64,000 nucleotides of DNA from Raillietiella orientalis (lineage: Eukaryota): positions 2,604,001 to 2,668,000 of the forward strand of contig JAYWIR010000032.1 in assembly GCA_036172245.1 (NCBI GenBank), in the 5' to 3' direction. The notes under the pieces were generated by a model that saw only the letters and a list, made by a program, of their open reading frames with translations, was not told where the DNA came from and made no database searches. Shown one piece after another: positions 2,658 to 64,000 of the stretch. Made by a program: the position numbers and the translations under genes. Within the stretch, counting starts at the first letter, position 1. Each line of letters begins with the position of its first letter.

Positions 2658-3760
2658 TTTATTACCCGGTTGTGCCGGAACGTTTATTATTAAAATCATC
2701 TGGGAACTGTGTTCCCAGGCAAGGGAAACAGAAGATGGGGAGAATGGTTCCCGACACGCAGGCCGGGCACACTGAGAGTTCGGAACGGAGGGAGGGGACA
2801 ATAAATAAATAAATATGGGGGGAGGGTAGGGATGGGGGTCTGCAGTTCAGCCGTTCCTATTCTCAGAACCGGCGGTGAATGCCGGCAATCTCCGTCCTCA
2901 ATTCTGCGCCAAGGTGTGGCCACCCGGCAGCCATGCCCAGATTGCAGGCTGCACTTTTGGTGACTGCTGTTGGGACCGCACCCAGCTGCAATACGTGGCG
3001 GGCCATGACACTGGCGCGGACGCAGCAGATGAATGCGACGACCGCTCCCAGATAAAGACCAACACTCGTGAAGAAGCGGCGCATCCAATCCATTGCGATG
3101 TGTCCGGGGTGCAGGAGAGCTGAAGACAGCCGCCTCAACAGCTTCTGGAGGGCACCGCATTCAAATAGTAGATGCGGAAGCGATTCCATCGCTCCGCATG
3201 CTGCACAGGTCGGGGCCACAACTCCCCCGGAAACCAGGTGCGCGCGCTGGTTGCAGTACAGACCCAATGCACCAACAGCAAAACGTGCTGTTTCCACCGA
3301 AGGGGGAAGACAGTCGCGTACAAGCACGGAGAACGAACCACAAGTTCTTCGGGGGGCACCCCGAGGAGCTCGCTCCACCGGAGAAGTCCCTTGGAACAAA
3401 GGCGAAGCGTGGCAGCGTCTGCCAGCTCGCAGGTCCTCCAGCCGCCCAGAAGCCGGGTTTCGCCCGCGATATCGCAAGCGACCTCCCACCTCGCCGTTAG
3501 GTCACTGTCGTCTCGCACCATCAGTGCAGACAGTGCTTGGGCGAGGGGCGTAGCGGCTAGGCGTGTCCGCTTGTCTCGGTGTTCCAACACCTCCCCTAGT
3601 GGACATTATGGGGAAAGGTTCACGCAACGGAGTTCCAAACGGGACACATCCTTTTGCGCTGCCTAGAAGGATAAGGGTTCCTGCCTCCAGGCGTAGAGGT
3701 TCGTCGGCAAGCAGGAGATCCACGAAGAAGGTCCGATGTGATGCGAATGTCCGGCTGTAA
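2658..3760 (-). mobile_element. 3' portion of a family-1 LINE
   Basis: LLRWSELLGVP...PLRWKQ and CAACGAMESLPHLLFEC. Terminal AATAAA and hairpin at 2664-2688. Confidence 0.85.
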
Positions 3761-15720: not shown

Positions 15721-16029
15721 AAGAGTAATTCTTCCTTCTCCCACGCCGAATTCGATTGCGCTGTCTTGTGGCATGGCAGCCGTTGAACACCGGCGATGCT
15801 TCACATATGCACACACACAGGAGAAAACTCAGAAACTCGGTGTCTCAAGAAAAGCTGGAGCAGGGAACGTCCGCTTGCTCTTGCGCTTCGACATGTCATC
15901 CGATCACCTCAAAGCGTCGATTTTCAAATGGACAATGAGCGCTGTACAAGATCTTGCTATGGCCATAACAACGAACCTGCAACCTGCCATCCCCTCCGCT
16001 ACGACTCACGTCGGCAGAGGAGGGGATGG

Positions 16030-21540: not shown

Positions 21541-21676
21541 CTCGACTTGACGTGCGGCATTCTCAGGCATTTCCGCCCTTCAACGGACGTAAAACCACAT
21601 GACACACTTTCGAAAAAAAAAACTCTACTTCCAGGAAGCGCACAACTTCCGCGTCCAAACCCGGCCAATGTTCTTC

Positions 21677-24600
21677 ACCCGGATATGCCGGGGCATTTAT
21701 TGTCAAAATTTTCACAAGAGTTCATGATAGAGTAAAAAATTTGTTTCTGTGGTACAACACTCGGTTCTATTACGCTGAGTAGACTTGTGATGAACCGGTA
21801 CGCTGAACGGTGGCGTCCTCTCCATGGGAGAAGTGAAAGGACAAAAGAAAAAAAAAAAAAGGAAAAGAATTCAAAAGGTTGAAGAATTGTTTCTTTAGGG
21901 AGAGGTGGAAAGGGTTTAGAATACTGTTCTCCTGGATCGGTCCCCTGCATTATGTGAAGGATGCCGACAAGTGCTGCTTTTGCATCATTCCGCTGGGACC
22001 ACCTTGTCGCGATCTCCAAAAAGATCGTGGTCCAGTGGGATGGCGTCTTTGCTGCTTTACCCTCTTCTTTGGGCGTTCCAACTTGCAAGGTATCCGCGAA
22101 CACAGCAGAGAACTGCAAGGGTTGAGGCGGGGGGACAATATCTGCCATGAAGAGGCGCCGGAAAGTGTCTTTCGGGTCGCCTACTGGAATATTCATTATA
22201 GACGAGAGTCGAACTCAAGGTTTACCGAGGGCAACACACTCTACTAGGAGATGCGGGAAGATTAGCTTCCTCCGCACTCTTCCCAACAGGCATATACACT
22301 TCCAAGTGAACAGTGAGAAAAGCGTGCTCTGAATAGCATTCCCCCATGTAAAAGAGCAACGCCGTCCCTTGCCACTCCATCGGGAAGGCGCCGCTATCCC
22401 AACACTCTGTAGGCCACTTAACCTCCTCCGAAGGTACTGCGAGTAGATCGTCACAGAGCACAAGTCCTTTAGGCGGGAAGTTCGGGGTCGCAGCGTCCGC
22501 TTACTCCCAAGACGTCCACGCCATTAATGATTTTTTCGAACCTTCGATAAGGCGGGATTCCTCCCACGTCGACGAGTCATCACGGTCTCCATCGTCTCTT
22601 TGAGAGTGGTCAGCAACAGAGCAAGGAACGACGCTTAGCACTGCAAACACCATGGGACGATCGGGACAAGGTGTCGATTGTCTGCTGAAGTAATGTCGCC
22701 TGGGGCGTCTGTCTAGGATCGGTACTGCATACGACCCCGAAGGCGACCGTTTTCGCGAAGATGGTCACGAGAAAAAAAAAGCCGGCTTCCTGCCATGGGT
22801 GTAGAACTCGCATTGCATGTTTTCCTGCCTGCCAGCTTACTTCTCATCACCTATACACACCTCGGTACTTTTCAGTTGGTTTCTCTCCAGTCCGCGGGAT
22901 TACTCTCACAATCAGGTGTACGCAAGCGGCTTGTTATCGTCCCCACTACCGGAGCAGCAGGATTCCAATGACGTCACGAGGGAACTCTCACCAAAAGAAA
23001 CGAAACTTCGATGCGACCGCGACGAACAGCTCCAGTCGCCTGCTGAAGGAAATGTGAATGGAAGCTCTACTCCCACTGTAGGGTCAGCAGTCCAGGAGGA
23101 CGGCCGGGAAACCTTTCGGAAGCAGATACTGATCGCCGCTTTCGACTTCTGTTCTCAAAACAACCGCAAGCGTTTCGGGACTGTTCGCTCCCTATTGAAC
23201 GGCCACGATCTGGTCGCGGAGAATCCAGGAATCTTCCTGACTGTACAGGCGCAACCTTCCGCAACTACAAATGCCGTCGCGCTAGAGAAGAGGAGAAGGG
23301 TGGCCTCCGTGATTCTCCCGAAAATAGCGCAGGCCTGCCCCGGAAGCAACAAGGTTATTGGCACTTGTGATAAGAGCGCTTCGGTCACAGTCTGGCCAGC
23401 AGCTTCGCGCCTGCATTCCTCGCTAGGATGCGATATTCGGCCCCGACGTTGCGCACCTCTGCTTCTTCAGGGAGCACAGGAGCTCTGTCTCAGCGGAACG
23501 ATGGTTTCCGCATCTGGCTCCCCAACCTGTGCAGCTGGAGACTCATCTCTACTGAGGAATTCGGCATGCACGCCTCCCATTCCACAAATCAGGGGTTGGA
23601 ACAACCAGGAGAGCGAGCGAAATACCGTCCGGCGAGAAGCTCTTTCCTGCACCGCCTCTTTCGTGATATCCTCGTAGCGAAGCAGCACCGCCGCGGGGCG
23701 TTTCCGGATGCACCGCTGTAACGCTGTTTCCCAGCAGCAAGAACGCTGCCGTTTTTCTTCTGACATGACTGACCCATCGAGAGGAACCGACGCTCTTCGT
23801 CCGGAGATGGCACCTGTAATTGCTAGGGAAGCCCCACCACGAGGACAGCTAAACGGCATCTTCCCTTGCAGACTGAGCACACAAAAAACGGCACCTTACA
23901 GGCGAAGGTGATGGGTCAAGCTGTCCGCGGAGTAAGGTCAAGAAATTCTTTTCGAAAAAGCAGTCCTTCAGAGCAGTCGTTATGTGCTACCGCTAGTCGC
24001 TATCACTTCCGGCGCACTCCCTCCTGCTGCCAAACGGGACAACCTCCCGATTGCCAACCTCTCATCTCCTTGCGTAGAGACGACGCCTTTAAGACTAGAA
24101 AGGTAACAGTCCTTGCGTGAACGCCATTCTTTCCGTCACTCTCCGCTTCCTTCTGGGAAACCGTAGAAACCCAGGTGACCAACGGTACGCATGAAATCCG
24201 CGTCAGAGCTCAAATTGCTGATGCTGGCGTAACTCCACAGCTCGTCGGGGTATGCAAAGTGGCAGGAAATCCACTTGCTTCTCCTGTTTTCCCAAGGAAT
24301 CGTCGATCTTCCACGGTGGAAACATTGGAGCCTTCGAGTGGTCGCAACTCTGAGGCAGCAACGAAGCTACATCCTGGCAACCGAATACGCGCCAGGGGAT
24401 ATTGCGCGCCGGTAGACACCACATCTGCCAGCTTTAATTTCTTGCCTTCAAGGCTGTCGTCTCGTGTAGGAAATGAGGTTCCTCTGTCATCATTGACCAG
24501 AGAAGGGATAGTCTTTCATTCCCACCTGCGACCGAAACTTTCTCTTGGAGCCGGGAAGCTCTTCCCTTCTTTCCCTTATAGTGCCTTGAGGATACATTGG

Positions 24601-24850
24601 CCACATATTCCGAAGGCTCTTTTCATCCTTGAAAACCGGGTCAGAATCGGTTGATAGCGACAAAACAGGAGCGCTCTGAGGCCTGAGCACCATCATGGCT
24701 GAGTGCAGCACAGTGGACGGAGAGCGCAGCTTCAGAAAAGCCACTCCCCTGGCAACGAGCCCCCTCTGTCGAAATTGGCGTTCCGATGGAATGCGAAAAG
24801 AGGAGCTCGCGGCTACCCTGCATAAGGTGCATAACAAGCGGCGCTACCGG
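21677..24850 (-). mobile_element. Old family-1-like LINE ORF2 fossil with 3' end; the upstream part is duplicated at about 5298-6850
   Basis: The 3' part is clear (DLLAVPSEEVKWP...FPMEWQ, DTFRRLF, AATAAA and hairpin at 21677-21701). The upstream part is only weakly recognisable (ARTVTFL, PSLVNDD, STVLHSAMMVLRP). Confidence 0.5.
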
Positions 24851-30800: not shown

Positions 30801-31030
30801 CGCGCACACATCATAGGCCTCCGCTGGCTCGCTCTCGCTTTCCACGCATCATTCACGCATCCTAGGATAGCGCCGTTTTTCCGGTGCCAGAGTTCACGAG
30901 CACCGGAATTAAATATGGCACCTGGATTTAAAGTTTAGTCTACCGCTTAAGCCAGCTGTCTTTGTGTGCGTGAGCCAATCACCGACTTTCCACCTCTTTG
31001 CCGCTTCATAGGGGTGCCCTTCGGACACCA
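23295..31030 (+). repeat. Segmental duplication unit, copy 2 (7.7 kb, contains gene B)
   Basis: Direct repeat of 5298-13033 with scattered substitutions and no net indel. Confidence 0.95.
26916..30120 (+). CDS. Secreted pepsin-like pseudo-protease, paralog B (recent duplicate of A), 9 exons, 371 aa
   Basis: Same exons as A shifted by +17,997. Splice sites and frame are intact. About 7 amino-acid differences from A counted by eye (T>I, A>T, F>S, R>G, H>Y, Q>P, G>W). Confidence 0.88.
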
Positions 31031-33480: not shown

Positions 33481-35706
33481 TATTAAAAACTTGAACGGGT
33501 CTGTCCTTCTGACGTGGCGAACGATTGTGGCACTGCCGTCGGACCCTCAGAGGACTCGAAGAACGCGGCATAGCTTCCACTACCTGCCAGGTCACCCTCT
33601 GCGGTGTCAGCAGCGACTTCGGCGTCTCTTCGATCGTTCGCCGCGGTTCGCGGTCGATCGCGGTAACGCGTTCGATTTTCGCCACGCATTGGCGCACGCG
33701 TTCCCTTCGTGTGCTCTCCGCGCCATCGCATCCAGAGGATTTCAATCATTGTTTTCCATCCTTTTCTTTTTTTTTTTATATCTTATGTGGTTAGTCAGCC
33801 TCCGGTCTCAATGCTGCAGCCTTCGGTTGCGCGTGCGCCGCCATGTCCCAACGGAAGTTGTGCTGGTTTTGAGGGCTTCGGGATCACTCGTGGGCCCCCG
33901 ATTGACTCTGGCTTTCCTTGCACTCTCTCTCCTACCCTCTCGCTATAAGGGAAAGAGAGGACTCCTATTCCCTATGGAGCAAATGACCTGGATTCGCTTT
34001 ATTTCACTGCATTCAGGACACGAGACTTCAAGACTCCTCCACTTGGATGAAACTTGGTTGCTCTGAGGCGTCTATTTCTGAAAAATAAAAGTACAGGTCA
34101 GTAACAGGACGTTTGGTCTAGCCATGTTATAAACAAACAAAAAAGAAACTGCCGGGGACCGGCACGCAGACCGATGAGGTCTACTGCAGAGGGGCGAGAG
34201 CAGCAGAAGGCAGCAGAAAGGAAGGAGAATCAACGGCAAAAAAAATAAGACAGGAGAAAAATTGGGAGAGTTCGGAGATGAATCACCGGATGCTAATGGG
34301 CGTCCTCTGCATTTTTATAATGTTGCCAGCAAGTTCCTGTTTTACAGTTCCTAGATGGGACCAATCTCACGCTATTCTCAGGAAGAGGAAGGCAAAACAG
34401 ATGGCGTCCCTGTTCTGCGTCGTTCTGCCCTCTTCTGTCGTCGCTCCATGCGGTCACTGCCGCGTAGCAGCAAAAGTGCTGCTAAAAGTGCGGCCAGCGT
34501 GATGGCGTCGCTCTGGAAGAGGCGCTTCAGAAGATCTCTGGAGCTGCCCTCAGATCCGCAGGAGGAAGGAAAGGCTTTCCCCACATGGAGCGCAGGGCAA
34601 AAAAAACCAAGAGCAGGTGCGGGAGGGACATTCTTTCTACGAAACTGCAGCAGTTGGGACTTTCACTGCCCGCGTCCAATGCTGTCGACGCGCGTTACAT
34701 GAGAGACCCTCATGAAACAACGGGAACGCTGACTCTTGCCGGGGGAAGGAAGCACCGTTCCACCACGCTGGGAGCCAATGTACCAGCTCCCTAGGAATTC
34801 GTAGTAGCTCTCCCCAGCGTAGCAGTCCTGTTCGTGGGACAGTCGGGGTGGAAGCGTCCGTCAGCTCCCGAATTGTCTACGCACCCAGTTGTTTCTTCCT
34901 GTTTTGTATATGAAACGTTACTACCCACCTATCTGGAAGTTTGCAGCCCTTTTCTCCTCCAAAGAATATTAGCGCTGGAGCTAGGGGAGTGAACGACTTT
35001 CCTAGCCTATCCTAACCTAGCCAAACACAGCCGCTGGATGGGCTGCTTCCACTCTTCTGAACGAAAAACCTGCTAACTCGATAAGGCCTTCCTTATGGCT
35101 CTATCGCACCCAGTCCCGTCAAAGAATGCGCGATGTCCCCGAGCAGGCGATCCTTTACGGACCGTCTCTCCGCTTCCGGAGCCACTGTCCGAGCTTGATC
35201 AGACGCCCCCCACTGTCGGTGACAACTTACGAGCGCTGTCCGCTTCCTCCCTCGCCTTCCTCGGTTCCCGAAAGGCGCTGCGTTCCGCGATCCCTCCCCT
35301 GATTTCCGGGGGCATCCTGCAAAAGCAAGAATGGCGGAAGCAAAGACGTTTTCAGGAACGAAGCAACTTCCAGGACCTTCATGCGTGGTTCTCCGCATGA
35401 GTGATTGCTGCCTGTCGAAGTGCTGCGCACACAAGGAACAGAAGAAAAGTCTCTACTTGGTGATCCATCGTTCGATCACATCAATGACTGCTACCGAAAT
35501 AGGGAGGAAAAGACGTATTTCGGGGGGAAAGATCCGTGAACACCTGCAAGAATCCAGGAAAATGATCCCAAGGATGCTGCGTCTTCGTCATATGAATGCT
35601 CCTCAAATCCTTCGAGAAAGTACACAGGCAAAAAGGGAGCGGTCGTTCTCTTTGCCAGAGACGCAGTGCATCGAATCGGAACCCGAAGTTCTCCATCGGC
35701 CTCCAC

Positions 35707-38700
35707 ATGTGGACATCCACGGCATTCTTCTCCGCTTTAATTGCGGTTTCCTGGTAAAAATGCGGGCAGCATGCTTGTAGGTGACTTTCACATTCCCTCT
35801 CGCACTTTCCTAGGGCAGCCACACTTCTTCCTGCGGAAGAAACCTTTCCACTTCGTTACAATAAGGTGAGTGCAGCCTTGCGCCTCCCTCACACTCTTAG
35901 AATGCAGGGCATCTACGTGCTCGAAGCTTCTCTGGGATCTCCGCCTCAACCCTTATCCCTTGCATTGGACGCTACAATGTACTCGGCTGTGGTCTTGCTG
36001 AGCCACTGCTGCCCAACTCCGTATTGCAGTGAGGGACCATAGCGCTCGCGACTAACCTTTCCGTGTTTGCTTTTCCATTGCAGAGGACCGTCTCAGATTC
36101 AGAAACAGGGATTCCGATACATTTCACTTCCACAAAGTGAAGAAAACGGAAATCTTCTGGACAGAATACCAGTCTTTCGTCGGCAATGACTCACTCGAGG
36201 TAATTGCCGACTCGGGATCGAGCGTCAAGAGCTGTTGCATTCGATTCTACGGGAATGGATTCAGCTGCAGAGTTGCGGCCATCGGCGAGTTTCCCCAAGT
36301 CCCACAAGGGGTGGGGTAAATTTATTTTTCTATAAAAATACACTTTTTACATTCACACTCTCATTCACTCAATACAAACACTTTGCACTTGGGAGTCCTT
36401 GGGTTGCACTGGAGTTCTGCTTTTCAGGGGAGGAATCCAGCTGGATGGTCCCGAGCGTCGTCCTCGATCCTCTTCAGGATGAATCGGTACGTCCAGGCGT
36501 GGATCTTTCCACAGTTCCTGATACCGATTTCCCTCTTCAGAAGCCCTTGTAGGATCTCCATCGGTGGTGCGGCTCTCCTGGCTTTCCTCATTTTCCACCA
36601 CCGCACAAGTATGGCGGTGATGAAGAGGGCTATGGTCGTCCTCACCATGGGATTGTAACAGGGAACATTACCATCCCCCTGAAACATCCCGGCGAGGATC
36701 TCCATAACGGACTTGTTGGTAAGTCCTATGATTCTATTCAGGATCAGCCAGTCATGCAGCAATGTGGGACACGTCAAGACGTGAAGTCTCGTGTCGATGT
36801 CTCCACATGCTGTGCAGTCTCGGTCTTCCCGTCTTCCGGTGAAGTGCTGCAATCGTGACCCACTCTGGATTCCTCCATGATAAAACATCAGGAGGTCGTC
36901 CTGGGTCCCCGGCGGAAGGTCACTCCTCCAGAGCGTCGTGCCGATCGCTAGCAGGTTGATGCGATCGCTCCCGTAGCGGTCGGCGGCTTCTTGGAGGGCA
37001 CTGGTGTCTCTTTCGTCCTCCTTGATCAATCTGCGGAGGTTCATTTTGGTTACCCTCGACCACGCGAAGTCGTGGTGGTTAATCCACACCTCGCGGGTGT
37101 GATGGGTGAACCTCCCTAACATCATCTCTATGTACCGAAGTACACGAGAGTGATGTAGGTATCCTCCTCGGCGCCATTCCTGGATCCGTTGCAGGGTAAC
37201 TCTGGGCCGCTGGTAGATCCAGCTTCTCGTGTCCGGAGGGACCGGAAGCATCCAAGGGATCACCAGGATGGACTCGTCCTGCCAGAATTCCCTGCTTCTT
37301 GGCACGATCTTCATCTTGTGCTTTCGCACCAGCCGTTGTTTTCGTCTCCAGGTCGGGTCGATGCTGATCCATTCCCCTGCTCGACCTAGCAGCGCAGTCA
37401 TCAGGCCTTTCGAGTTGTTGAGCAACAACGCGTAGGCCCTGTGCGCCGCATACGGCCAGTCATCCCAGTGTGTGGCTATATCCAGGATGTGTCGCGTATC
37501 CATGATTTCCATGGAATGTGCAGGCGATTTCATCCCGGAACCGCCTTCTTCCCTGGGACGACACAGGGGTTTTAGACGAACTCTTGGGCGATAGTGGCCC
37601 CACAATGTTTTGCGCTGCAGCTTCTCAACTTCTCTCGTGGTTTCTTTATTCATTCTAGCGAAGGCCGCCCCGAAGAGTACTTCTGGAAGAAGTACTCCGT
37701 TCCATAGGTTGGTTCTCCGCTTCATGTTGAAATCCAGTCGAGTGTACTTCGCTGCTTCCTTGGCCGTTTTCCCCAGGATTTCCGTCCACAGCAGCTTCGA
37801 CGCAGAGTCGTCTCCGATGTAGACTCCCAGGTACTTGGCCGTATTCACCGTACGGAATCCACTCCCCGTGAGAGTGGAGAGGTTCAGGATTCCGACGGGC
37901 AAAAGCTGGCTCTTCTGGGAATTGATTTTTAAGTCCAAGCCCTGTTCCATCAGGTCTACCACATCCAGAAACGCTCGTTGATTTCTCTCTCCCTTGATGA
38001 AGAAGAGATCATCAGCGTATGCCAGATGGGTAAGACGCTGGCCATCGATGGTTATTCCATTCAGTCGTCCGCTCTTCTCGATAAAGGACGACAACGCCTC
38101 CATATAGATGACGAACAGCATCGGACTTAGAGAGTCGCCCTGTCGGACTCCTCTTTCCATCCTGATTGCTGCCGTCTCCTGGCCGTTGATCTTGATCCGA
38201 GAGTACTGGTTCTCGAGTACCGCCCTCACGAAGCTGCTGAAGTGTTCCGGAAGCCCTAGCTTCTCCAGAACCTTCAGCAGCATCCCGTGGTCGATGGAGT
38301 CGAAGGCCTTCTCCATGTCAGTGAACACCAGTACCAGGTTCTCGCCGACGTATCGGCTGAGTCCAACAGTGACCTGGGCACACTTGACATTGTCCGACAT
38401 GTGTCGTCCTGGGACTGCACATGTTTGGACCGGAGAGATTAGCGGCCATCAACGACGGCGTCGATCGGTGATATTCTGCATTTCCATCCCTTTGCGGATT
38501 ATGCGCGGTTTCTTCGCACGAAGTGCTGTGGCACCATCGTCACCAAGTTGGGTGCTTCTTCCTGTCCTTGTTCGGGGCCGAGGGTCCTGGAAACCTTAAA
38601 AATGCCAACCGTTATTTTCTTAGCTAGCACGGGAACAGGATCGCGCTAGCAAATCTGAAAGAGTCGGGGCCCTTCTGTGCGCGTTGTCATGGGTGCAAGA

Positions 38701-44050: not shown

Positions 44051-44154
44051 AGGTTCCCCGTTTCCTATTCGTTGTGAAGGTTCCAGAACTACAGATATCC
44101 GAATGCCACTTCTGCCACTACCGCTGATACATCCATATCCGTAAAAGAGGGTCT

Positions 44155-45100
44155 TCACCCGTTTGCTAGGGGACGTTCATTTGAATAAAAAAAGGGAGCT
44201 ACAGAAAAATAACAGAGTGCTTATTCCCCTGGGCTGGAAAAAAAACAAAACAAAATGAAAGTTCATTAAAGAAGTAGGCGCTGAATCACAGGATAAAGAA
44301 TAAATTCTCTGCAGCATTTTGGGATTACGGATCAACAAATACATAGTTGGCGTGTGGGAATGGGGGCTCTGGGTTTGCTGCCCATCTTCTTCATCCTCCG
44401 TGAAACGCTGCTGAGCTCCCGGCTGGCTTCCCGTTTCAGATGAGACCACTTGCATGCTTTCCTCAGGGTTGAACATTGCGATGCAGCCTCTCTTCGACGC
44501 CCGTGCAACTCCGGCGAGTATCAAGTGGTGAGGATGCCGCAGACCCAACACAAAGTCGCGACGACGGCGGCAGACAAGAGCCCGTCTTGGCTGAAGAGGC
44601 GAAGCAGATCAATGGGCATACATTCCGGGAGGAGAAGAGTCGATGGTGAGCTTTTCCATTCTGGACGGATGACGCCGCAGCTCATCAGCAGGTGAGGGAG
44701 CGATTCGATCTCCCCATCGTTGACACACTCCGCAGACGCACTCCCCCTCGTCACATGGTGCATCCGTTCGTTGCAGGGAAGACACCAACGCAAGAACATC
44801 ACCATGCATCGTTGACTCCGCACAGGGAGGACAGATAGACACAGAGGATGAACCCAGTGTACTTCCAGGAGCACACTTAATGTTTCGGAACACCGACAAA
44901 GTCCCTTCGCCTGCAAACAGGGCGCAGTCGCGTCGAGTCACACTTTCGTGAAGCATCCGTCCAGGTGTTTTTCATCTCCATCGGTGTGCCAGGAGAACTC
45001 ACACCCTGCCAGTAGGCAACTGTTATGCTTTTCTCATAGGGAAGGCGGCGCTGCGGCCAAAGGTGCGGCGAATCCACGAGCCCACTTGGTCGCCTCGTCG
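44155..45100 (-). mobile_element. Decayed family-1 LINE 3' fragment
   Basis: FLRWCLPCNERMHHVTRGSASAECVNDGEIESLPHLLMSC, with a degenerate terminal hairpin near 44157-44180. Confidence 0.8.
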
Positions 45101-46560: not shown

Positions 46561-46936
46561 GCACAAGCGAGCACGGAGAACGAGAAGACGCTCCCGGAAG
46601 AGAAACCCTCATGCGCAGTAACTCTTATGAGTGATTGCTGCCTACAGAGGTGCAGCGCACACAGGAAGGAGGGAAAAGAAGTCCCCACTTGGTGATCCAT
46701 CATTCCATCACTTTTTTGACTGATACGAACATCTCGAAGAGGAGTGACATTGAAGACTAAGAACTGCCTAAACACCTGCAAAGGTCCAGGAAGATCATCG
46801 CATGGATGATCATCTCTTCTGCATATAAGCACTCAAGAAGTGCGTCGAGGAAACTCACAGGTAGGAAAAGATCAGTCGTTTTCTTCAGACCGGTGCTGCA
46901 TCGATTCGGTATACGAACGCGTCCATTGGCTTCTAA

Positions 46937-49983: not shown

Positions 49984-52831
49984 TGTCTTTGAGTCGCGAA
50001 AAACGGTGGTTTTAAGAAATTTGAAAGATAATAAAACAGATAGCAGTCCGCTGTCCATTTTCTCACGCATGTAAAATCTCGTGGCAGCTGTGTGCCCTCA
50101 ATGTGTTTCAAGTTTGGCTCTTTGAACAGAACGGTGTGCTGCATAGTAGTGTGCTGATAAATGGGCGCTCCTGGGGATTCAAGCCTGTCTACTGTTTAGA
50201 TAAGACGGAGTCGTCATGCTCCACACCGTTGCTACAGCGCGCATGCTGCGGAAGGCCAGCTGCAACCATTCCGGAACCACGAAGAAGTCTTTCTCGTTCA
50301 CCATCCTGGCTTCCATTTCGATTCGATCCGAGGCAGCTCTATCGAATGACCTTTTCTCGCCTTTTACGCAGAGGCTGCTTGTGCATGTGGTTGCTACAGG
50401 CAACCCCGTTGAGGCTCCACTTACTCCTTTACTTCTTTCTCCTGCCGCTGAATCCATACCGAGGAAACATCTCGCCTTTTCTTTAAGAAAGGGTTGCTTT
50501 CCAGCAGCAGCTGTAAGTATCACGTGCCTGTTTGCAGCCACGGTGGTCACGCTGATGAGGGTTGTTCATCGCAGCGATGACAGCCTGGATGTGTCTTAGT
50601 TATCCTCAGTCGGTTCTTTGCTACAGTCTTTCGCTCTCTCCGTCCAATTGACAAGAGTGGCCCGCTGAAAAAGTCAAACTTGCTGTGGGCTTGGAAGCCT
50701 CAACGACCCTCGAAGAATGGGCTCAGAGTTGTGTGCATTTCATGCAGTGATGCGTGTATGCTCGATTCAGAACGTGTCACCCGGCAGCAGCACATTCGGC
50801 AAGTTTTCCCTCGGGGCATCGTCGTTAAGAAGTGGAAGATGGGTTTGAACATGGCCACATCCGAGGCATGAAAGCGTTGATGTTAAGCTCACGGGATTAA
50901 AATTTCTGACACCCAACTCACCAAGGAAGAGATCCAAACCAAAGCGCGAAGAATGCTGCTCTGCGGCAGGTTGCTTTGCAACAAGTATCCGATGCTCTGA
51001 GAACCTTCTCTTGCCTCAGTATTGTGTACTCTGAGAGGCTGGACGCGCATCCAAATGGCCAATGGAAATATATCCAAGGAGGCATCTCGCGAAAGGTCAA
51101 GAACCTTGTGCATCTTGCATTAAAATCAGCCAATCGGTACTTGAGCGTTGCTGGAAAGAAAGGCAGCTCTTATGAGGCTGTTGGACGGAGATGACACTGC
51201 CATCGTGGACAATTGCTTCAACATCGCTCGGCATCAGCGTGGAAGGACTGGCATTCGGTGTTCGAGAATTATTGTTCCAGGAGAAAAAGAGGGAGACACT
51301 GGAGGTTTCCTTTCTGGCAAACCTAAGGTTAATTCGCCCGGACTGGTGAGGAATGAAAAAAACAAAAACAGTGGGGTGGCCATTTTTCTCTTGCACGGAG
51401 TTTGCTGATAATGAACCCGAAAAACTCTTTGGAGACATGGACTTGGAACGCACACCAGCGAAGAAATTTCCTTCTTCACTGAGGGCAACCCGCGGGACCG
51501 TGCATGAAGAAAAGAACTGAGCAATCATCCCGATCCAGGGAAGGCTATGGGCTGCGTCGGACACCATCCCGGTTTTAGCGACATCATCGCCTTCGGAGAC
51601 CGCTCGGGGTTCCCGGGTTCCCGGCAGAAGAAAATCTTACAAAACACAGCGCCTGCAGAAGGAAGAAGGATGGAAGATGCACACGCTCCGATGTGCCTTG
51701 ATGACCGATCCGTGTCGAACCACTCTAGGATGGAGTCCAAGGAGCATCCTGTTGGCAACGGTCCAGGCTGCCGGGAGATTGGCTCCGTTATCCGGAGGCC
51801 GCAGAGCAGCCACGTGCTTTCCTTCGTGGCCTTGCAATCGCCGATCCGGAAGACTGGGACCACTTGAAGGAACACATCCGGCGGTTTTGCGTCCTGCACA
51901 CCTCGCCTGCTGCTCCGACCCCGCGGGACAGGGTCCCGGGAACAACCCTGCTGTTCTACAGACGCCCGTATGTAAGCAGTCTGGCCGAATGCGAAATGAG
52001 GGCCGAAGGATGGGATCGGGGTAGAATGCCCTCTGGACGCACAGGACAAGGAACTCGGGGCTTCAGCATAGGTTTTTTGTCCGAATTTTCGGAGCATTTT
52101 TTGTTGGGAAAGTGATGAACCCTCGAGTTCTCGTGGTGGGGCTCTCCGTTTGATTACGTCCTGCCCAATGGGGAAACTGTCGAGTTGCCGCGAACAGGCG
52201 ACGATCGCTTCTCAGCGGACTAAAGGCGGACTCATGCAAGGAAAACAAGAAAACAAAAAAAGACAAAAAAGAAAAAAGTAGGAAACCTTTTTTTTTTTGG
52301 TGGGAGGGGGAGGACAAGAAGGGATCCCTGCTCACTGCTGCTAGACGCTTTCTGCATTCCTTGCAGGATGCCGACAAGTTCGTTTCAAGGTGGAGCCATC
52401 TCGAGGCGATCCTTACGGAGATGCCCAACCAGTGGACGAGATCCGTTTCATTCTGACCACCTCTTGCAAAGTTCCAGGTCACCACTGACGCGCGAGGATA
52501 GCAGAGGACTACGAGGGACGCAGGTGGTGGCAGTGCGTCGCGCACGGAGAAATGTTTGAAAATGTCGCTGGGACGCCAATCAGGATTACTAAGGTCCTCG
52601 AAATGCGATCTTCAAGTGGTCGGATGGCAATCTAGCTGAAGGTGCGGAAAGGTCTTCTCACCGCATCGATCACAATAGGCATTCGCACTCCTCCGTGCCC
52701 AATGATGAAGGCGTGCCTTGCGTGGGATCCCACAATGCAACACCAGCCGCGCCGACGGTCAGACGTGTTTTCTGCGCGCTCCTGACTCGCTCGACTTTAT
52801 TGGTGTAGTGCGGTGCATCAGTGGAAGGGGG

Positions 52832-54433
52832 ATGGCAGAAATGCCTGATCCCGCCACTAGTGAATGTGGGGTGGGGGCCGGGCGAACGTCCCCCGTACCC
52901 ATGGAGATAGGGGCACCTGCCCGGAAAGCTTCGTCCCCCGCGCCGGCGAGGGACTACAGCGCCGCGGTCGCCGCGCCATCTGCAGCGGCCATCGCCGAGG
53001 CCCTGGCCTACAAGGCCTACAACTACAACCCGAGTCTGCTGTATAAGGTAGGCCGGGTGTTTGATGACCGTGTGGCGCGCTCCTTCGAGAAGGAGCTCCA
53101 CCGTTTGAACGTTAACAAGGAGGATCTGCTGGGTCTCTCCATCCGCAGCGGGGGACAGCATGTCGAGTTGACCTGCAAAGAAGCAGGGTTGGCGCAAAGA
53201 CTGCTGCGAACCCCCGTCAGGGTCGAGGGCCGCCAGATCTTTCCTGTCCCGGTGGACAACTCAATAGTTGTCCACCTCCGTGGAATCACCGTGCGGATGT
53301 CACCGAGCGCCGTTAGGGCTGAACTCAGCAAATTCGGCACCGTACACGCGCTGTGGCTGAAGCCCAACAGGTTCCGTACTTATGACGGACTCCTGAGCGG
53401 ACTCGCCGCGGCACGTGTGACTGTGAATAAGGACATTGGGGTTCCCCATAAACTAGTAGTCGACGGAGATTCTGTCGACATCTGGTATCTGGGGAAACCC
53501 AAATACTGTGCGTTTTGTGATGGTACGGGGCACGTGAAGAAACGCTGCCCCAACATCACCTGCCGCAAGTGCGAGGCAATCGGGCACACGGAAGAAGTGT
53601 GCCCCAAAAAGACTTCGCGCGCGCCGGCTGCTGCCGTAGGCGGCACGAACACGAGCAAGAAGCCTGGCAAGACCAAGCCGTCGTCTGAAAATACGGTTGA
53701 CCCGGAGCCAGCCAAAAAGGGCATCCCGACCACCCCGTCTGCAGAAACGCAGGGAACCGAGGTGGAAGGAGGAGAGCCTGGCTGGCAAAAGGTCAGTCCC
53801 AAGAAAAAGAAAGAAAAAAAGGACGTAAATAATAAAAATAAAGTCCCTGCAAAAACCGCGAAACCCGCAAAAAAGCAGGGACTGAAAAAATGCACGGTCG
53901 CACTGGAGCGCCTTGCAGACGCCGAAGTGCCGTGCGAACAGGACGTTGCCGTGTGCAACAACGCTGACAGCCCCGTCGCTGTGCAAACAGCGTCCGAGGG
54001 CTGCGGCGAGGGGGAGAGGCGCGATGACGCGGGCTTTGCAAAAGCCGCCGACGAGCTCGCCGCCAGTCAGCAGCCTCCCGCAAAGGTCGGGAAGAAGGCC
54101 GTTCGACGTCCGGCCGAGAGGAGGGGGACCGGGACCTCGGACTCGGACCCGGAGACCGGACACGCACCATCCGCATCTGCACCCCCGAGGAAGACCGGAA
54201 GGAAAATCCGTAACCCGAGGAGGATCGTCTCCTCCGAGGAAGGGGAATCCTCCGGAAACGAGGGTGCGGCGAGCGTGGGAGAGATGAACACGAGTCCTGA
54301 ACTCCCACGATCGGTCGAGACGGAGCCGATGGAGACGGAGGGGGTCGTCGAGCCGCCCCCCACCGCACAGGAGAAAGCCGGCGTCCCGCCCCTAGGTGAG
54401 GCGGGAGACGCAGCATCACTTTCCCAGCAGTAA
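52832..54433 (+). CDS. LINE ORF1 nucleic-acid-binding protein (probable RRM-like region, two CCHC knuckles, disordered tail)
   Basis: CAFCDGTGHVKKRC and CRKCEAIGHTEEVC. Start at ATG 52832 or 52841; the latter matches the homologous start at 1599. The TAA overlaps the ORF2 ATG (TAATG). Confidence 0.9.
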   Translation: MAEMPDPATSECGVGAGRTSPVPMEIGAPARKASSPAPARDYSAAVAAPSAAAIAEALAYKAYNYNPSLLYKVGRVFDDRVARSFEKELHRLNVNKEDLLGLSIRSGGQHVELTCKEAGLAQRLLRTPVRVEGRQIFPVPVDNSIVVHLRGITVRMSPSAVRAELSKFGTVHALWLKPNRFRTYDGLLSGLAAARVTVNKDIGVPHKLVVDGDSVDIWYLGKPKYCAFCDGTGHVKKRCPNITCRKCEAIGHTEEVCPKKTSRAPAAAVGGTNTSKKPGKTKPSSENTVDPEPAKKGIPTTPSAETQGTEVEGGEPGWQKVSPKKKKEKKDVNNKNKVPAKTAKPAKKQGLKKCTVALERLADAEVPCEQDVAVCNNADSPVAVQTASEGCGEGERRDDAGFAKAADELAASQQPPAKVGKKAVRRPAERRGTGTSDSDPETGHAPSASAPPRKTGRKIRNPRRIVSSEEGESSGNEGAASVGEMNTSPELPRSVETEPMETEGVVEPPPTAQEKAGVPPLGEAGDAASLSQQ

Positions 54434-57400
54434 TGCCGGGACTCGCCACCTGCCGTCAAATACACATCGCCAGCTGGAACGTCAACGGGCTTTGCGATGA
54501 CGGCAGGAGACGAGACATAGCTGCCACCTTGCAAGCCTTCGACCTCGTGCTGCTGCAGGAGATCCATGAGATTTCCGCAGAACATGCGCGGGAGATCGAA
54601 CGGATAGCAGGTGGTCAGCTTATGTGGCGATGCGGCCACCGCCGTACGCGCGGGGTCGCTTTCCTTCTGAAGCCTGCCTTACAACGCGCGGTGCGGAAAG
54701 TTCGTTTCGATGAGGCAGGTCGGGTCGGGCAAATCACCTTCAGGTGGTCCGACTCCATCAATCTCGTCGTCACGAACGTGTACGCGCCGAGCGGCGGTCA
54801 CGCGCGCGTGGAACGGACGGCGTTTTTCCGTGCGTTCAAGCGCGACTGGCTGTCCGAGGCAGGCGCGCGCACGGCGCACCTGATAGCCGGCGATTTTAAT
54901 ATTCGCCTGCTATCAGGTGCGGCGAGGACAGAGGCCACCCCGGTTAACGAGATGTGCGCTGCGGTGCACGCATCCAACTTGTTAGCCGGGGATACCGGGA
55001 TGGAACGGAACGTGGACCACGTCTTCCTCGACGATCACCTGCGCTGTCGCGTGGGCAGGCGAGGTAAGATACAGTTCGCAGTCTCCGACCACTCCCGTGT
55101 GGAACTCGTCATTCGCCCGCGCGACAGGGGGCCCCCCGCGCAGGCGTGGCGTCTACCGGGGGACTGGCTGACCAAGCCAGGCGCAGCGGAACACCTCCGC
55201 GCGTTCTTGCGAGGTTTCAGCCTGCAGACGCTAGACGACTGGGACGATTTGAAGGTCTCGGTGCGAGAGTTCTGCCAACAGTTCCCCATGGACCGTCTCC
55301 CGAAAGGATTTGGAGAAGGTGTTCGGAACGATAGGGCTTACCTGCAGGCCCGTCGTTACTCCCGAACACCAGACGTCCGAAGACTGGCGGAATTTAAAGC
55401 CGGGGCCGAGCGGCAGGCCTGGCAATCGGGGTCGCCCAGCCTGCTGGACGACGAAGGCCAAGAGCACTCAGCCCCGGCAGAGGTGAGTAGCCTAGTGCAC
55501 GGCTATTATTCTTCCCTGTACACCAGGGTGCCTCCGGACCGGGAATTTTCCCAATTTTTGCTTCCGGACGGTGCCCCGGCGATCGGGGAAGAAGAGAGAG
55601 TACGCCTGGACGAGCCTTTCACGATGGGTGAAATCACCACCGCAATCGGGAAGCTCAAAAGGCGGAAGTCACCGGGGGAAGACGGCCTGCCCGCGGAGTT
55701 TTTTCAGTGCTTCGCGGCGGAGCTGGCTCCCCTGGTGCAGCGGCTAACGCTGCTGATCCGGGAGACAGGAGACGTTCCCGCCTCCTTCCGATCGGCACGT
55801 ATGCGTCTCCTACCGAAAGGAGGAGACTTACGGAATCTCAGCAATTGGCGTCCGATTACTGTACTGAACGCGGACGCCAAGCTGGTTGCGAAGCTATGGT
55901 CGGAGCGAATGGGGCGGGTGGCGGAAAGCTTCATCAGCCCGGAGCAGACCTACGCTGTTCCCGGGCGAAGCATGGACGCCAACCTGCTCTTCGCGAACAC
56001 CTGGTTCGAACTTCAAAGAACCAGAATGAATGGAGGGAACAAGGTCGGCAGCCCGATTTGCGGGACGTCCGCTGGTGGTTCGCGGGATAGTCGGGAGAGA
56101 GAAGGGGCCCTCGCGGTCGCTGTCGATTTGCGGAAAGCATTCGACAGTGTCGACCAGGAGCTCCTGCTGGAGCTTCTGGAGCGCTTGGGCTTCCCGGCCT
56201 CCTTATTGGCTTTTCTGCGCTCTTGCTGGCGCGACGTGCTGACCAACATTTCTTTCAGGGGAAGGAACGTGTTCGCTGTGCCGGTGCGCGGCGGGATACG
56301 GCAGGGTGATAGCTTGAGCCCCTTGCTCTTCAGCACCTACTTCGAGTTGGTGCTGAGGGCATTCAGGGAGACTCTTGGTCGCCTGCCGCGCGTGTGCCCA
56401 GGTACACCGGCCTTGGCGGCGTATGCGGACGATCTTCTGCTGCTGCTCCCCATGTCCACCCCGGCGTCGGCGGTCGAAAACTTTTTCGAGCTGCTGCGTC
56501 GCGGGACAGGACTGGAGGTGAACAGAGCAAAGTCGTCCGTTGTTGCAGTCGGTTCCTCGTGGGCAGGGCAGCTAGACTGGTCTCGCTTGGGGATCCCCGC
56601 GGTACGGTACCTTAAGTACCTCGGTGTGCCGTTGGGGGACTACTCCCCAGCGGAACAATGGTCTTGCTGCCTCCAAAAGGCCGAGAGAGCGATCGGCCCG
56701 TTCCTGGATGGCAAGTTCTTCTTGCCGGAACGGGCCGTGCTGTGGAACACTTTCGTGGCCCCCCTGTTTCGCTCCTTGCATTTTGTTTGTCCCCCACCCC
56801 GTGGTGTGAGAACACGTACAAAGGACCTCCTCAGAATCGCCATCTGGGGCAGAGGAAGGCCCCGCGCGCGTTGGAAGGACTTGTGCGCCCCTCGTCGCGA
56901 TGGGGGCCTTGGCCTCCTCACGCTGGAGCGCCTCGAACTGCAGCTGCAGTTCCGAACAATCGCCCTAGTGGCGAAGTTGTGGAGCGCCAGCTGGTGCGAG
57001 CCTGCACGATGCCTGGTTCAGCGAGTCGGCGGCTGCGCGGGACTGTCTACCTTCCTAGCGCGCCGCAAACGCCGGTACCTGTTCCACTGCGGACTGGCTC
57101 TTCGGCGAGTGGCGAAGCTGACCAGGAAGAACACCTGGATCTCCTGCCGGCCCGCGAACGGCACTTCCTGGTTGCAGGAAAGCCTTCGCACGTGGGCCCA
57201 GATTGAGGAAGCGAGCCCGGAGTTGCGGCAGCGAATGCTGCACTCCTATCATAAGAGCCGCTCGCTGCAGGACATCATCGTGCAGCCCGCCTTGAGTGCG
57301 TGGGCTGAGAGGACCTCCCTTGCCACAGCTCTGTCCCACCTCAAGGAACATCTGGGCAGTAGCCAGCCGGCCATGTGAGAGGTCCGGTGTACGATCAGGG

Positions 57401-57999
57401 ACACTGAGAAAGAACAAGGTGGTTGGACCACGGGTCAGCTTGCTGATGCCGCGATCCCAAGTTCCCCACCGAGAGGACTGTTGCGCTGGGGCGAGCTGCT
57501 GTGCATCCCGCGGGATGAACTCGAGTGGCCCCCAGTGCTGAGGAATACTCGGGCCCTCCCCCTAAAGTGGCAGGAGTCGGCGTTCCTGGTGTTGCACTGG
57601 GGACTCCCCAGCAACGCCCGCCGCTCTCATTGGACGAACGGGGTTGTGGACCCGAACTGTGTCAGGTGCGGGGAACGAGAAACTCTCCCGCACCTGCTCG
57701 TTGACTGTGTTGCCCTCCGGCCCCTGTGGTTGCGCTTTGCAACAGCCGTTGGTGCACCCTTGCACGCTCCCAGAGACGTTTTAAAGCGCCTCTTCGTGCG
57801 CGACGCCCTTTCGCCTGCCGCAGCCCTTGCAGCCCTCTGCTGCCTACGAGGGATTGTAGCGGCTTGGAGCACCGCCACTGGTGGACCGAACGATAGGGAC
57901 ATCTTGTGCTACGCCCTGCGCTTCCTGAGGACGGCAGCAAGATGGACCCATCTGGGACACATGCAGTTTGAACTTGCCGGCATCCTGCAAAGCATGTAG
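54433..57999 (+). pseudogene. LINE ORF2 (APE endonuclease, reverse transcriptase, C-terminal zinc finger), about 1188 codons with one in-frame TGA at 57376-57378
   Basis: APE motifs IASWNVNGL, LLQE, NVYAP, GDFN, VDH, SDH. RT motifs KSPGEDG, NWRPITVLN, DLRKAFDSV, GIRQGDSLSP, YADD, KYLGV. C-terminal CVRC...ETLPHLLVDC. ORF-track ORFs 54433-57378 and 57481-57999 share one frame, and the TGA aligns to Trp in related copies (ARWEV, PKWQV). Confidence 0.92.
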
Positions 58000-58689
58000 A
58001 GGACGTCTCCAGCGGAACGTGATCCCTTCCCCAACCCCTCCCTGCTTTTGTAAATAGTGTTTTCTTTTTGCTTTTTTTTCTATTTGTTCCTTCCCCCTCC
58101 GCTGCCGAGTCGACCTTGGGAGCCTGCTTGCTGCCCACTCGGCGAGTTCAGAAGAACATGTTCTGAACACTGTAGGGGCGATAGCCCTACACTTGCTTGT
58201 TTATTTTTTTTATTAAAGAAATAAACGCCCCGGCGCACCCGGGTGTAAAAGCAATGCCAACTGTTGCCACTTCAAAAGGGAAAAGGTGTTACCGTTACAG
58301 CAGGCTGGAGAACACTTGATCTCCTCTGCAGGGATCACAAGCAACTTGCCCCAGAGTAAAAGTATTTTTGGCGGGACACACGGGGTCGCAGCTTCCGTAA
58401 GCCAAGGGTTGTCCACGCTCACAGAAGTTTCTTCCTGTCATGGATGCAGAAGGACACCTCCCACGGTGCCGGAAGGTCTCTGCCCTTTGCATTCTTTCAA
58501 GAGAACAACACATGGGCAAGGGGGGTTGAACAAAACCCACATCAGCTGGCGTGCCTTGAACGCGACCTCCTGCAGCTGCTGAAGGTCGTTCCTGCCTTGC
58601 CTCAGATAGGCGTACACCGCCTTGCTCTAGCCGTAGATCTTTCTCCATGTAGTTTAGCTGATGTCTGAACTCTGCGAGCACCAGAGTCG

Positions 58690-59963
58690 CTTACCTCATT
58701 GTGGGGACTTCAACACCCGCCTGCTGTCGGATAACCAATGGGCGAAGGTGCATCACGTGCAGTTGAGCGAGCTGTGTGCATCTCTGAATGCATGCAACTT
58801 GCTGGCCAAAGAACCTGAGATGCACAATGTCATCGGCCACTCCTTCCCCTACGAGCACTTGTGTTTCTGGGTGGGCAGATGAGGAAAAATGGTATCGGAT
58901 CTGGCGGATTATCCCAGGATAGAGTTCGAGCGACGGCCTCCAGGGAAAGGCCGCCATCAAGATGTGCAGGCTGAGAGACCCGGGAGCTGTGAAAATGCGC
59001 GGCTTCCTTCCTGATTTTGCCGTTTGCAAACTCGAGGACTAGGATGACTTCTTGCACTCGGTCCCCCGCGAATTATGCGAGCAGTTCCCTTAGGACTGCC
59101 TGCCTGCAGGAATCGGGAAGGGGATCCGTAGCGAAAGGGCAGATCCGCAAGCCGACGTTACGCAAGGAACCTTCACGTCCGTCGCCTGGCTAAGAACCGA
59201 ACCGTACAAGTAGAGGAACCGAACAAGCCTGGCAGTCCGCGCCTCTCAGTCTGCTGGATGGCCAGGGCAGGGAACACTCGTCCTCGGGTATGCTGAGGAG
59301 CCTCTTAGGAAAATTTTCTTTCTTTCTTTCTTTACGCGAGCGCAATCCGGAGCGGGACGCCTCGCAGCTCCTGCTACCGGAAGGTGCACCGACGATGGGG
59401 CAGGAGGAGAAGAAGAGACTCGACGAGCCTTTCGCGACTCGTGAGATCACCGCGATCGGGGAAGCTCAAGAGGCGAAGAGCGTCAGGGGAGGACGGCCTG
59501 CCCACGGAGTTTTTCCGATGCTTCCCGACAAAGTTGACACCCCTGGTGCTGAGGTTGACGATGCTGATCCAGGAAACTAGTTATGTTCCCGCCTCATTCT
59601 GGTCAGCAAGGGTGAGGTCCCTCTTCTAAGGAGGAGACTCCAGGAAATTAAGCAACTGGAATCCGATCACCTTGGCGCACGTGAATGACAAGTTGGTCGC
59701 CAAACTACAGCCGGGGCGACTGGGGAAAATGGCGGATTCCGTAAACAGCCCGGAGCAGACTTCCGCTATTCCAAGGTAAAGTATGGATGCCAAACTTTTT
59801 CTCGGCAGCACATGGCTTCAAATACAGAGCGGTGAAAAGGGAAAGGAGGGAATTGTCCACAGCGAACACACACAGTTTGTGTGTGTTCGCTGGGCTGGGA
59901 ATGAACAGCAGGGCGGAGGAGGGAGCCCTAGCGGTCGCAGTCAATTCGCATACAGCGTTCGAT
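58690..59963 (+). mobile_element. Decayed family-1 ORF2 (APE to early RT), cut by an opposite-strand insertion
   Basis: CGDFNTRLLS, LLLPEGAPTMGQEEKKRLDEPF, KLKRRRASGEDGLPTEFF, EGALAVAVN. Confidence 0.85.
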
Positions 59964-60480
59964 TTTCACCCGGAATTCTCCGGGTCGTTTATTAAAAAAA
60001 AAAAAAAAACTTTATAGTAAAAATGTCAGTGTGTCAAGCACGAAGAACCATGGAGCCTGCCAGGACACCGGTTTGCAGACCGGTACGGTCCACCATGGCA
60101 GCAGGGGAAGGGGGAAAAAACAAAAAAAACTAAACAAAAAGAAAAAAAGAGTGGGAGGGTACGGGAAGGGATCACTGTTGCTGCTGGGGCCGCATCATTC
60201 TTCTCAGGAAGCCGGCAAGCGCTTGCTGCATTTGAGGATTCAGTTATGGCCATCGCAACGCCCTCCTCAGGAATTGGGAGGCGCACTGGATGGCTTCCTT
60301 ATCGCGAGGTCCTCCAGTAGCCGTGCTCCATGCGGCGACGACCCCTCGAAGGCAGCACAAGGCCGCTATCGAGGCCGCTGGCCGCAGGGCATCGGCAACG
60401 AAGAGGGCTTTTAAAGCGTCCCTGGGGTTGCCGCAGGGATTCCGATGGCCGCGGCAAAGCGGAACCAAAGGGGCCGAAAT
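59964..60480 (-). mobile_element. Short 5'-truncated family-1 LINE 3' end
   Basis: PRDALKALFVADALRPAASIAALCCLRGVVAAWSTATGGP. Perfect 7-bp terminal hairpin at 59968-59985, preceded on the minus strand by AATAAA. Confidence 0.88.
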
Positions 60481-63620: not shown

Positions 63621-64000
63621 GGCAGGTTTCCCCAAGTCCCACAAGGGGTGGGGTAAGTTTATTTTTCTATAAAAATACAAAATTTACATTCGCACTCTCA
63701 TTCACTCAATACAAACATTTTGCACTTGGGGGTCCTTGGGTTGCACTAGAGTTCTGCTTTTCAGGGGGAATTCCAGCTGGATGGTCCCGGGCGTCGTCCT
63801 GGATCCTCTTCAGGATGAATCGGTACGTCCAGGCGTGGATCTTCCCGCAGTTCCTGATGCCGATTTCCCTCTTCAAGAGCCCTTGTAGGATCTCCATCGG
63901 TGGTGCGACTCTCCTGGCTTTCCTCATCTTCCACCACCGCACAAGTATGGCGGTGATGAAGAGGGCTATGGTCGTCCTCACCATGGGATTGTAACAGGGA
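63621..64000 (-). mobile_element. 3' end of a second young family-2 LINE copy (runs off the window)
   Basis: Near-identical to 36284-36660 (MVRTTIALFITAILVRWWKMRK..., same 3'UTR and terminus). It interrupts the ORF1 that starts at 62381. Confidence 0.92.

Follow-up and report, generated by a model that had tools for sequence, protein, structure and literature searches.

Stringent hairpin ends and tail-less ends have both been reported within the L1 clade, where the survey in PMC3472496 counts 9 of 233 flowering-plant L1 families and 5 of 15 green-algal ones as having no 3′ repeat; the same account treats as unsettled whether the ancestors of the L1 clade read one particular 3′ RNA structure, a requirement that was relaxed to poly(A) only later. 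For human L1 RT, pairing of the last 4 primer bases is described as mattering most (PMC3649969), and the uniform 3′ junctions of R1 have been attributed to downstream target sequence carried on the RNA (PMC2718515). Here we compare with these systems a LINE lineage found in a 64,000-nt stretch of DNA (the window) that forms part of the 210-Mb genome we searched for motif counts.

A sequence-only reading of the window had noticed five 3′ ends that share AATAAA and a CCCGG/CCGGG palindrome. All five are present where they had been placed (Table 1), and the pattern AATAAAYGNNCCGGN{5,6}CCGGGT matched 5 times in the window and 0 times in 100 dinucleotide shuffles. The positions stood, but the three minus-strand ranges had been drawn 1–5 nt short; those in Table 1 run to the terminal NNAA. 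A degenerate sixth copy was also recovered where suspected, on the minus strand, while the loops, thought to be 4–5 nt, are actually 5 or 6 nt. Across the genome, AATAAAYGNNCCGGN{4,7}CCGGGTG gave 2,018 exact matches compared with 0 for the reversed control pattern, and a pattern with the stem left free gave 2,912 compared with 6 in the reversed control. The motif was present within 4 mismatches at 30/30 loci chosen by ORF2 C-terminus similarity alone. When all collected loci were considered, 125/133 ORF2 C-terminal matches had the motif within 5 mismatches (reversed controls, 1/133), a count that is not independent because many of those loci were first located via the motif. The module is 30 or 31 nt long in 123/125 ends, and the distance from stem to end is constant across subfamilies whose ORF2 C-termini are 28–65% identical to the reference. 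AATAAA sits 24–25 nt before the element end, which is the usual spacing for cleavage and polyadenylation, assuming that this host uses the signal in that way. The motif had 14 matches in metagenomes, none beside a LINE-like ORF and all treated as chance, and 0 in viral contigs; in the window, no Rfam family was matched and Tandem Repeats Finder reported no arrays.

Table 1. Elements, terminal modules and target duplications located in the window
Feature	Position	Strand	Remark
Terminal module of full-length copy, AATAAA-CG-C-CCCGG-CGCAC-CCGGG-TG-TA-AA	58220..58249	+	final element base 58249
Upstream 3′UTR hairpin, subfamily-specific sequence	58171..58191	+	predicted fold; 28 nt before AATAAA
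Full-length subfamily A copy, 5.49 kb	52757..58249	+	98.4% identical to copy L061
ORF1, two CCHC knuckles	52832..54433	+	stop overlaps ORF2 start (TAATG); zf-CCHC E 0.013, below Pfam cut-off
ORF2: APE endonuclease, RT, zf-RVT	54433..57999	+	single in-frame stop 57376-57378
5′ copy of 12-bp target duplication	52745..52756	+	4/12 positions unlike 3′ copy; tracks element tree
3′ copy of target duplication, host type	58250..58261	+	
ORF2 C-terminal part of older host LINE, antisense to inserted copy A	52387..52744	-	
Host ORF2 resumed beyond copy A (about aa 1014-1060)	58262..58401	-	
Terminal module, subfamily 3, 6-nt loop	61496..61526	+	antisense at host ORF2 aa ~305
Terminal module, subfamily 4	59963..59993	-	antisense at host ORF2 aa ~582 (D.RKAFD region of RT)
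Terminal module, older copy	21672..21701	-	
Terminal module, older copy	2659..2688	-	
Decayed terminal module, 5 mismatches	44152..44181	-	
Another decayed terminal module, 6 mismatches	34047..34076	-	behind ORF2 C-terminus
Family-2 terminal module: AATAAA, other predicted hairpin (CCCCA...TGGGG), AAA, no A tail	36290..36326	-	
Second family-2 terminal module	63627..63663	-	antisense within family-2 ORF1

Heavily decayed modules, all in minus orientation, were also seen at 13315-13344, near 15950 and near 52090, the latter two behind ORF2 C-terminal fragments. Separately, the window carries a 7.7-kb direct duplication (5298-13033 and 23295-31030, 98.6% identity). A segment of this duplication (about 8570-9500) resembles an intron-bearing gene family, with 70% relatives lying at 35360-36290 and at 46600-47530 and no Pfam match in the two ORFs tested.

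The element end could be defined from target-site duplications of about 11–17 bp, as had been proposed. Candidates were found in 45/171 ends, and in 38/45 they begin +4 (29 ends) or +3 (9 ends) after GGGTG, the +3 starts being a chance one-base overlap; 4 others begin earlier (tandem copies) and 3 later. A candidate at +4 was present in 37/171 ends compared with 7/167 at a control offset. Because the duplications start there, the element terminus is CCGGGTG-NN-AA, 6 nt beyond the 5-bp stem, and the flagged motif does mark where this L1-group LINE ends, as a conserved 3′ terminus. The ‘few A’s’ that had been noted after the hairpin are real insofar as AA is fixed, but the remaining bases are target DNA. 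Insertions range from 78 bp to 5.6 kb, reflecting 5′ truncation, and in 22/22 short duplication-bounded insertions examined the duplication starts at the element end, these having been selected on that offset. Empty-site siblings of the window’s host, 67–74% identical, confirm the native upstream sequence, albeit not every base. At one further locus (L053, end at oriented position 2174), the duplication candidate lies 5 nt later than usual with AGGCA between; this may reflect a rare case of captured read-through, or else bases lost from the 5′ copy.

Long poly(A) is essentially absent from these ends genome-wide: a single genomic match has 8 or more A’s after GGGTG-NN. In the lineage with a 6-nt loop and a C-starting target word, 97 of the first 100 listed matches (170 in total) run from NNAA directly into C, 2 have one extra A and none has more; this tally was made by eye with a pattern that demanded AA, and therefore leaves shorter ends uncounted. 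Among 125 distinct target starts, 46 begin with A, 79 do not, and 1 begins with AAA. Since 79/125 targets have no initial A, priming cannot ordinarily rely on poly(A):T pairing, and with the tail also absent this route is excluded for most insertions, which bears out the suggestion of poly(A)-independent priming. Four genomic matches have an A run within 22 nt, with a normal duplication at the element end in 3/4. The remaining one (L207), a typical AGCA site, has about 10 extra A’s immediately beyond the element terminus, no target word intervening, and its 3′ duplication copy carries a G-to-A change; the A run fits either polyadenylation of the RNA right at the terminus or slippage at a later time.

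The sequence-only reading had counted a stem lacking covariation among the outcomes that would speak against it, and this was the outcome here. The five stem pairs hardly vary: across 115 ends, 1/575 cells is changed on both sides, and in 20 lineage representatives compensatory changes were found in 0/100 cells. The 5–6-nt loops vary freely, so that the contrast it had noted between a kept stem and diverging loops was nonetheless seen. Because the stem is invariant without compensatory change, the terminal element is conserved as sequence. That it folds as a hairpin is plausible. The closing pair of the 6-nt loops is G-C (10), A-T (5) or C-T (4), and folding z-scores of the five window ends range from -2.9 to +0.1.

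A second hairpin, mostly 20–30 nt upstream of AATAAA, was strong in 43/89 representatives compared with 15/89 and 20/89 control windows. In 20 hand-picked related copies, 90% of its cells pair, and in 24 cells both partners have changed; 0/500 shuffles reached as high a value, a control that is inflated by the relatedness of the set, and slid registers pair at 26–55%. A second group of 8 copies showed the same tendency. In an automatically chosen set the signal was weaker, with inner positions pairing in 72/120 cells and 15/2,000 shuffles as high. The covarying structure is this upstream hairpin, distinct from the flagged terminal stem; the covariation was seen in related GTGG-type hairpins of other subfamilies, not in the copy listed in Table 1. 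We suggest that the invariant terminal module may be a shared, sequence-read processing or positioning element, acting in RT recognition or 3′ processing, and that the upstream hairpin may be a subfamily identity tag.

The elements probably represent a deep lineage of the L1 group. ORF2 matches the Pfam families Exo_endo_phos, RVT_1 and zf-RVT (the last below its cut-off), and ORF1 has two visible CCHC knuckles with weak zf-CCHC matches (E 0.013 and 0.0021). The best PDB match of ORF2 is human L1 ORF2 (E 7e-47), followed by R2 (E 1.5e-15), these being the sole LINE matches there. The features of the broad-sense L1 group (APE-type LINE) are present: an APE-RT-zinc ORF2, a separate ORF1, variable duplications and 5′ truncation. 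Those of relaxed mammalian-type L1 (3′ poly(A) and an A-rich nick site) are absent, and the stringent-type feature of a conserved structured 3′ end is present, with the terminal stem kept without covariation. In RT trees that had neither a non-L1 outgroup nor a named Tx1 protein, one of the two being a quick version, the lineage stands as a separate clade (100/99). Its nearest neighbours, with weak support (83/88), are LINE proteins of land plants, while two fish proteins that carry ZCCHC3-type domains fall elsewhere. The earlier label of ‘Tx1-like’ is unsupported, and no source calls the fish proteins Tx1; the Tx1-clade trait of target-sequence preference is present, as described below for subfamily A. 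Database relatives are 20–35% identical, except for one JGI protein (P0002) at 75%. As this protein falls within family 1, at least one environmental sample must contain the lineage. The ESM Atlas returned generic RT-endonuclease clusters only. Some copies are young and near-intact: 17 other full-length subfamily A copies are 97.3–98.5% identical to L061, and open frames reach 1,225 aa. A GACGTGT motif 5–12 nt inside the 5′ end, followed by predicted hairpins, is common to three subfamilies (window 52762-52768; L083, L084, L086, L087, L100) and is possibly, together with the hairpins, an internal promoter element.

A second family has the same layout. It is 27% identical to family 1 over the aligned part of ORF2 and forms one clade with it (99 in the quick tree, 100/99 in the other), and at 30/30 loci AATAAA is followed by a different predicted hairpin and then AAA, with A runs of 3 or 4. 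Two different 5′ ends occur in this family (L182-L201), one of them seen only with the second target site (5/5); three copies join the first-type 5′ end and flank to the second 3′ flank, perhaps having arisen by recombination.

Insertion-site preference differs from subfamily to subfamily. The 19 closest relatives of the copy ending in the 58220 module all lie antisense at one codon near ORF2 aa 1063 of other LINEs, a single homologous 3′ site. Their hosts’ 3′ flanks are 83–92% identical (66–75% for two hosts), while the 17 full-length elements among them are 97–98.5% identical to a reference copy; because the hosts are far more diverged than the elements, the shared site reflects repeated insertions, and segmental duplication was rejected as the cause of the shared flanks. 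In family 2 the flanks are about as similar as the elements themselves, and segmental duplication may be the source of the shared flanks. Two loci, L074 and L075, may be one duplicated insertion. Preferred ORF2 sites of other subfamilies are at aa ~66, 74, 279, 305, 496 and 582 (antisense) and 165 (sense). In 155 ends, a sample enriched for young clusters, the sequence that follows is antisense LINE coding sequence in 66, sense in 21 and neither in 68. Dispersed copies keep a 4–5-nt subfamily-specific word, not A-rich, right after the end, and about ten different target words occur across the lineage. The hosts form a chain, with subfamily A inserted into subfamily 2 and subfamily 2 antisense at ORF2 aa ~279 of others (window 52745-58261; L061-L079). 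Full-length elements also stand in head-to-tail tandems with only the target duplication between them (L084, L085, L097, L192, L195-L199).

The endonucleases of subfamilies with different targets are about 60% identical. The stretch at ORF2 aa ~195-215, before the IDH motif (window about 54990-55050), is short-looking. Its sequence differs among subfamilies A, 2 and 4, and the loops that follow RCG and YAPS differ as well; such endonuclease loops may play a role in target choice. Two copies sought for near-identical endonucleases with different targets turned out to share another nested insertion and to be missing the greater part of the endonuclease. In the tree, family-2 copies are not grouped by target.

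The 5′ side of the insertions gives a different kind of information. In 18 full-length A copies, the 5′ and 3′ copies of the duplication differ at 30/216 bases, and the 5′ variants follow clades (99/97, 99/99, 83/87) of an element tree from which they had been left out. They do so even where the hosts are only 66–75% alike. Because the 5′ copies follow the element tree, the RNA likely starts inside the donor’s target sequence. In truncated copies the two duplication copies differ at 4/242 bases, these copies having been found through that match.

We tentatively favour a mechanism, resembling that proposed for R1, in which ORF2p is bound by the hairpins while a short read-through of the RNA base-pairs with the nicked target, although we hold it with somewhat less than even confidence. 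If the host uses AAUAAA as assumed, the signal would likely end the transcript a few bases past the element; ORF2p would likely bind the 3′ hairpins, supposing that both fold in vivo; the read-through bases would pair with the nicked target, and copying would begin at the terminal AA without poly(A). At the other end, the transcript would likely carry the donor’s target sequence. Pairing is favoured because the uniform junctions of R1 are ascribed to target sequence at the RNA 3′ end and because R2 acting on an unannealed primer is described as adding non-templated bases (PMC2718515), whereas the junctions here are nearly free of extra bases. The subfamily word occupies the positions of the last 4 primer bases, dispersed sites included; the regular duplication offset, the direct NNAA-to-C junctions and the double-sided changes in the upstream hairpin are likewise in favour. 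Against this, no captured flank was found among the genomic copies examined, an endonuclease footprint alone can give a 4-nt word, and the structural part of the model has to accommodate a terminal stem without covariation, the modest z-scores and an upstream hairpin that is strong in fewer than half of the representatives.

A start that needs no pairing ranks close behind, although we consider it unlikely as such. Here the RNA would be cleaved and polyadenylated at the element end, ORF2p seated on the terminal hairpin would start 6 nt past the stem and so skip the tail, and the endonuclease alone would pick the target. The fixed stem-to-end distance, the long A run straight after the end of L207 and the lack of captured flanks are all consistent with such a ruler, as are reports that a stem-loop helps to set the start of human ORF2p (PMC10830416) and that the endonuclease mainly sets target choice (PMC4494074). 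The clean junctions argue against it when compared with unannealed R2 priming. In addition, human ORF2p is reported to give no product in vitro with only 5 terminal A’s (PMC10830416), and because of that failure a 6-nt spacer would need a different geometry.

Read-through pairing could also be extended such that the RNA carries the donor target at both ends and uses it to choose the insertion site, which we regard as doubtful. The module would then fix the start of copying, the read-through bases would act as a short guide, and each subfamily would inherit its landing site, a block of conserved codons in a sibling LINE, via RNA plus endonuclease. If this RNA-guided reading were true, swapping a few post-hairpin bases would retarget a compact, tail-free, base-precise gene-insertion system.

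Slightly less probable still is an RNA that is not polyadenylated, its AAUAAA-hairpin module making or protecting a discrete 3′ end at NNAA from whose last base the RT copies. The tail is essentially never copied, the strict invariance of the module would suit a host processing factor, and family 2 repeats the layout with another hairpin; set against these, AATAAA stands in the usual polyadenylation range, assuming host use, and the A run of L207 is one exception. We consider it very improbable that the palindrome works as DNA, as a spaced CCGG-N5/6-CCGG protein site or a terminator rather than an RNA hairpin: an uncompensated stem and fixed spacer length would suit this, but the palindrome lies exactly at the duplication-defined junction, family 2 has another inverted repeat in the same place, and the closing pair of the 6-nt loops alternates between G-C and A-T, with C-T in 4.

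The lineage offers a natural series for the question of ancestral recognition: its copies are young, the terminal signal is constant while the upstream hairpin varies, and about ten target words are in use; base-precise L1-type priming without poly(A) also bears on the engineering of site-specific retrotransposons. We found no publication on this lineage or combination of features in a search judged mostly by titles and the openings of abstracts, with subscription journals and Repbase largely outside its reach.

The closest described parallels are L1-clade elements whose conserved 3′ end forms a hairpin, namely LINE1-1_ZM of monocots (monocot 1a) and L1-1_CR of Chlamydomonas (PMC3472496, PMC3747384). 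In those elements, as described, it is the loop that is conserved, and the stem shows compensated variation. The present lineage has an invariant terminal stem with a free loop, and its covariation lies in a second hairpin; L1-1_CR moreover ends in poly(A), which the present lineage does not. UnaL2, ZfL2-1 and ZfL2-2 of the L2 clade likewise have a 3′ stem-loop near the end, bound by ORF2p in the work reported (PMC4176376) and presumably so here. Those stringent LINEs belong to another clade, with short 3′ repeat units and specificity in the loop according to the same source, while the present elements have no terminal repeat and share loops between subfamilies. Drosophila R1 is alike in its site specificity, mostly precise 3′ junction, duplication of about 14 bp, tandem arrays separated by the duplication, and the target sequence proposed to lie on its RNA (PMC2718515). 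It differs in belonging to the R1 clade, in targeting rDNA and in sometimes inserting downstream target bases off-target in that account; such inserted bases were not seen here. R2 similarly has target sequence (upstream 28S) at the RNA 5′ end, giving uniform 5′ junctions (PMC3774820), but is described as using a restriction-like endonuclease (PMC12503042) and an HDV-like ribozyme, whereas the window matches no Rfam family. Insertion into other transposons is known from Tx1 in Tx1D and Tx1-Mar in Mariner-N4_AMi (PMC4494074), and nested LINE clusters from Zepp, by its description in PMC3446292; unlike in those reports, each subfamily here has one main target, mostly antisense, within the coding sequence of sibling LINE subfamilies. 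Human L1 shares the domain order, the best PDB match and variable-length duplications, yet is reported to need poly(A) for binding and for priming at T-rich nicks (PMC10830416, PMC3649969), in contrast to the uncopied tail and non-A-rich words found here. Because other clades and a few L1 families are already known to have LINE ends that are hairpin-marked or tail-less, the end motif by itself is no more than a moderate surprise. Hairpin ends, transposon targeting and nesting are each known, and the lineage is a variant of the known stringent LINE ends.
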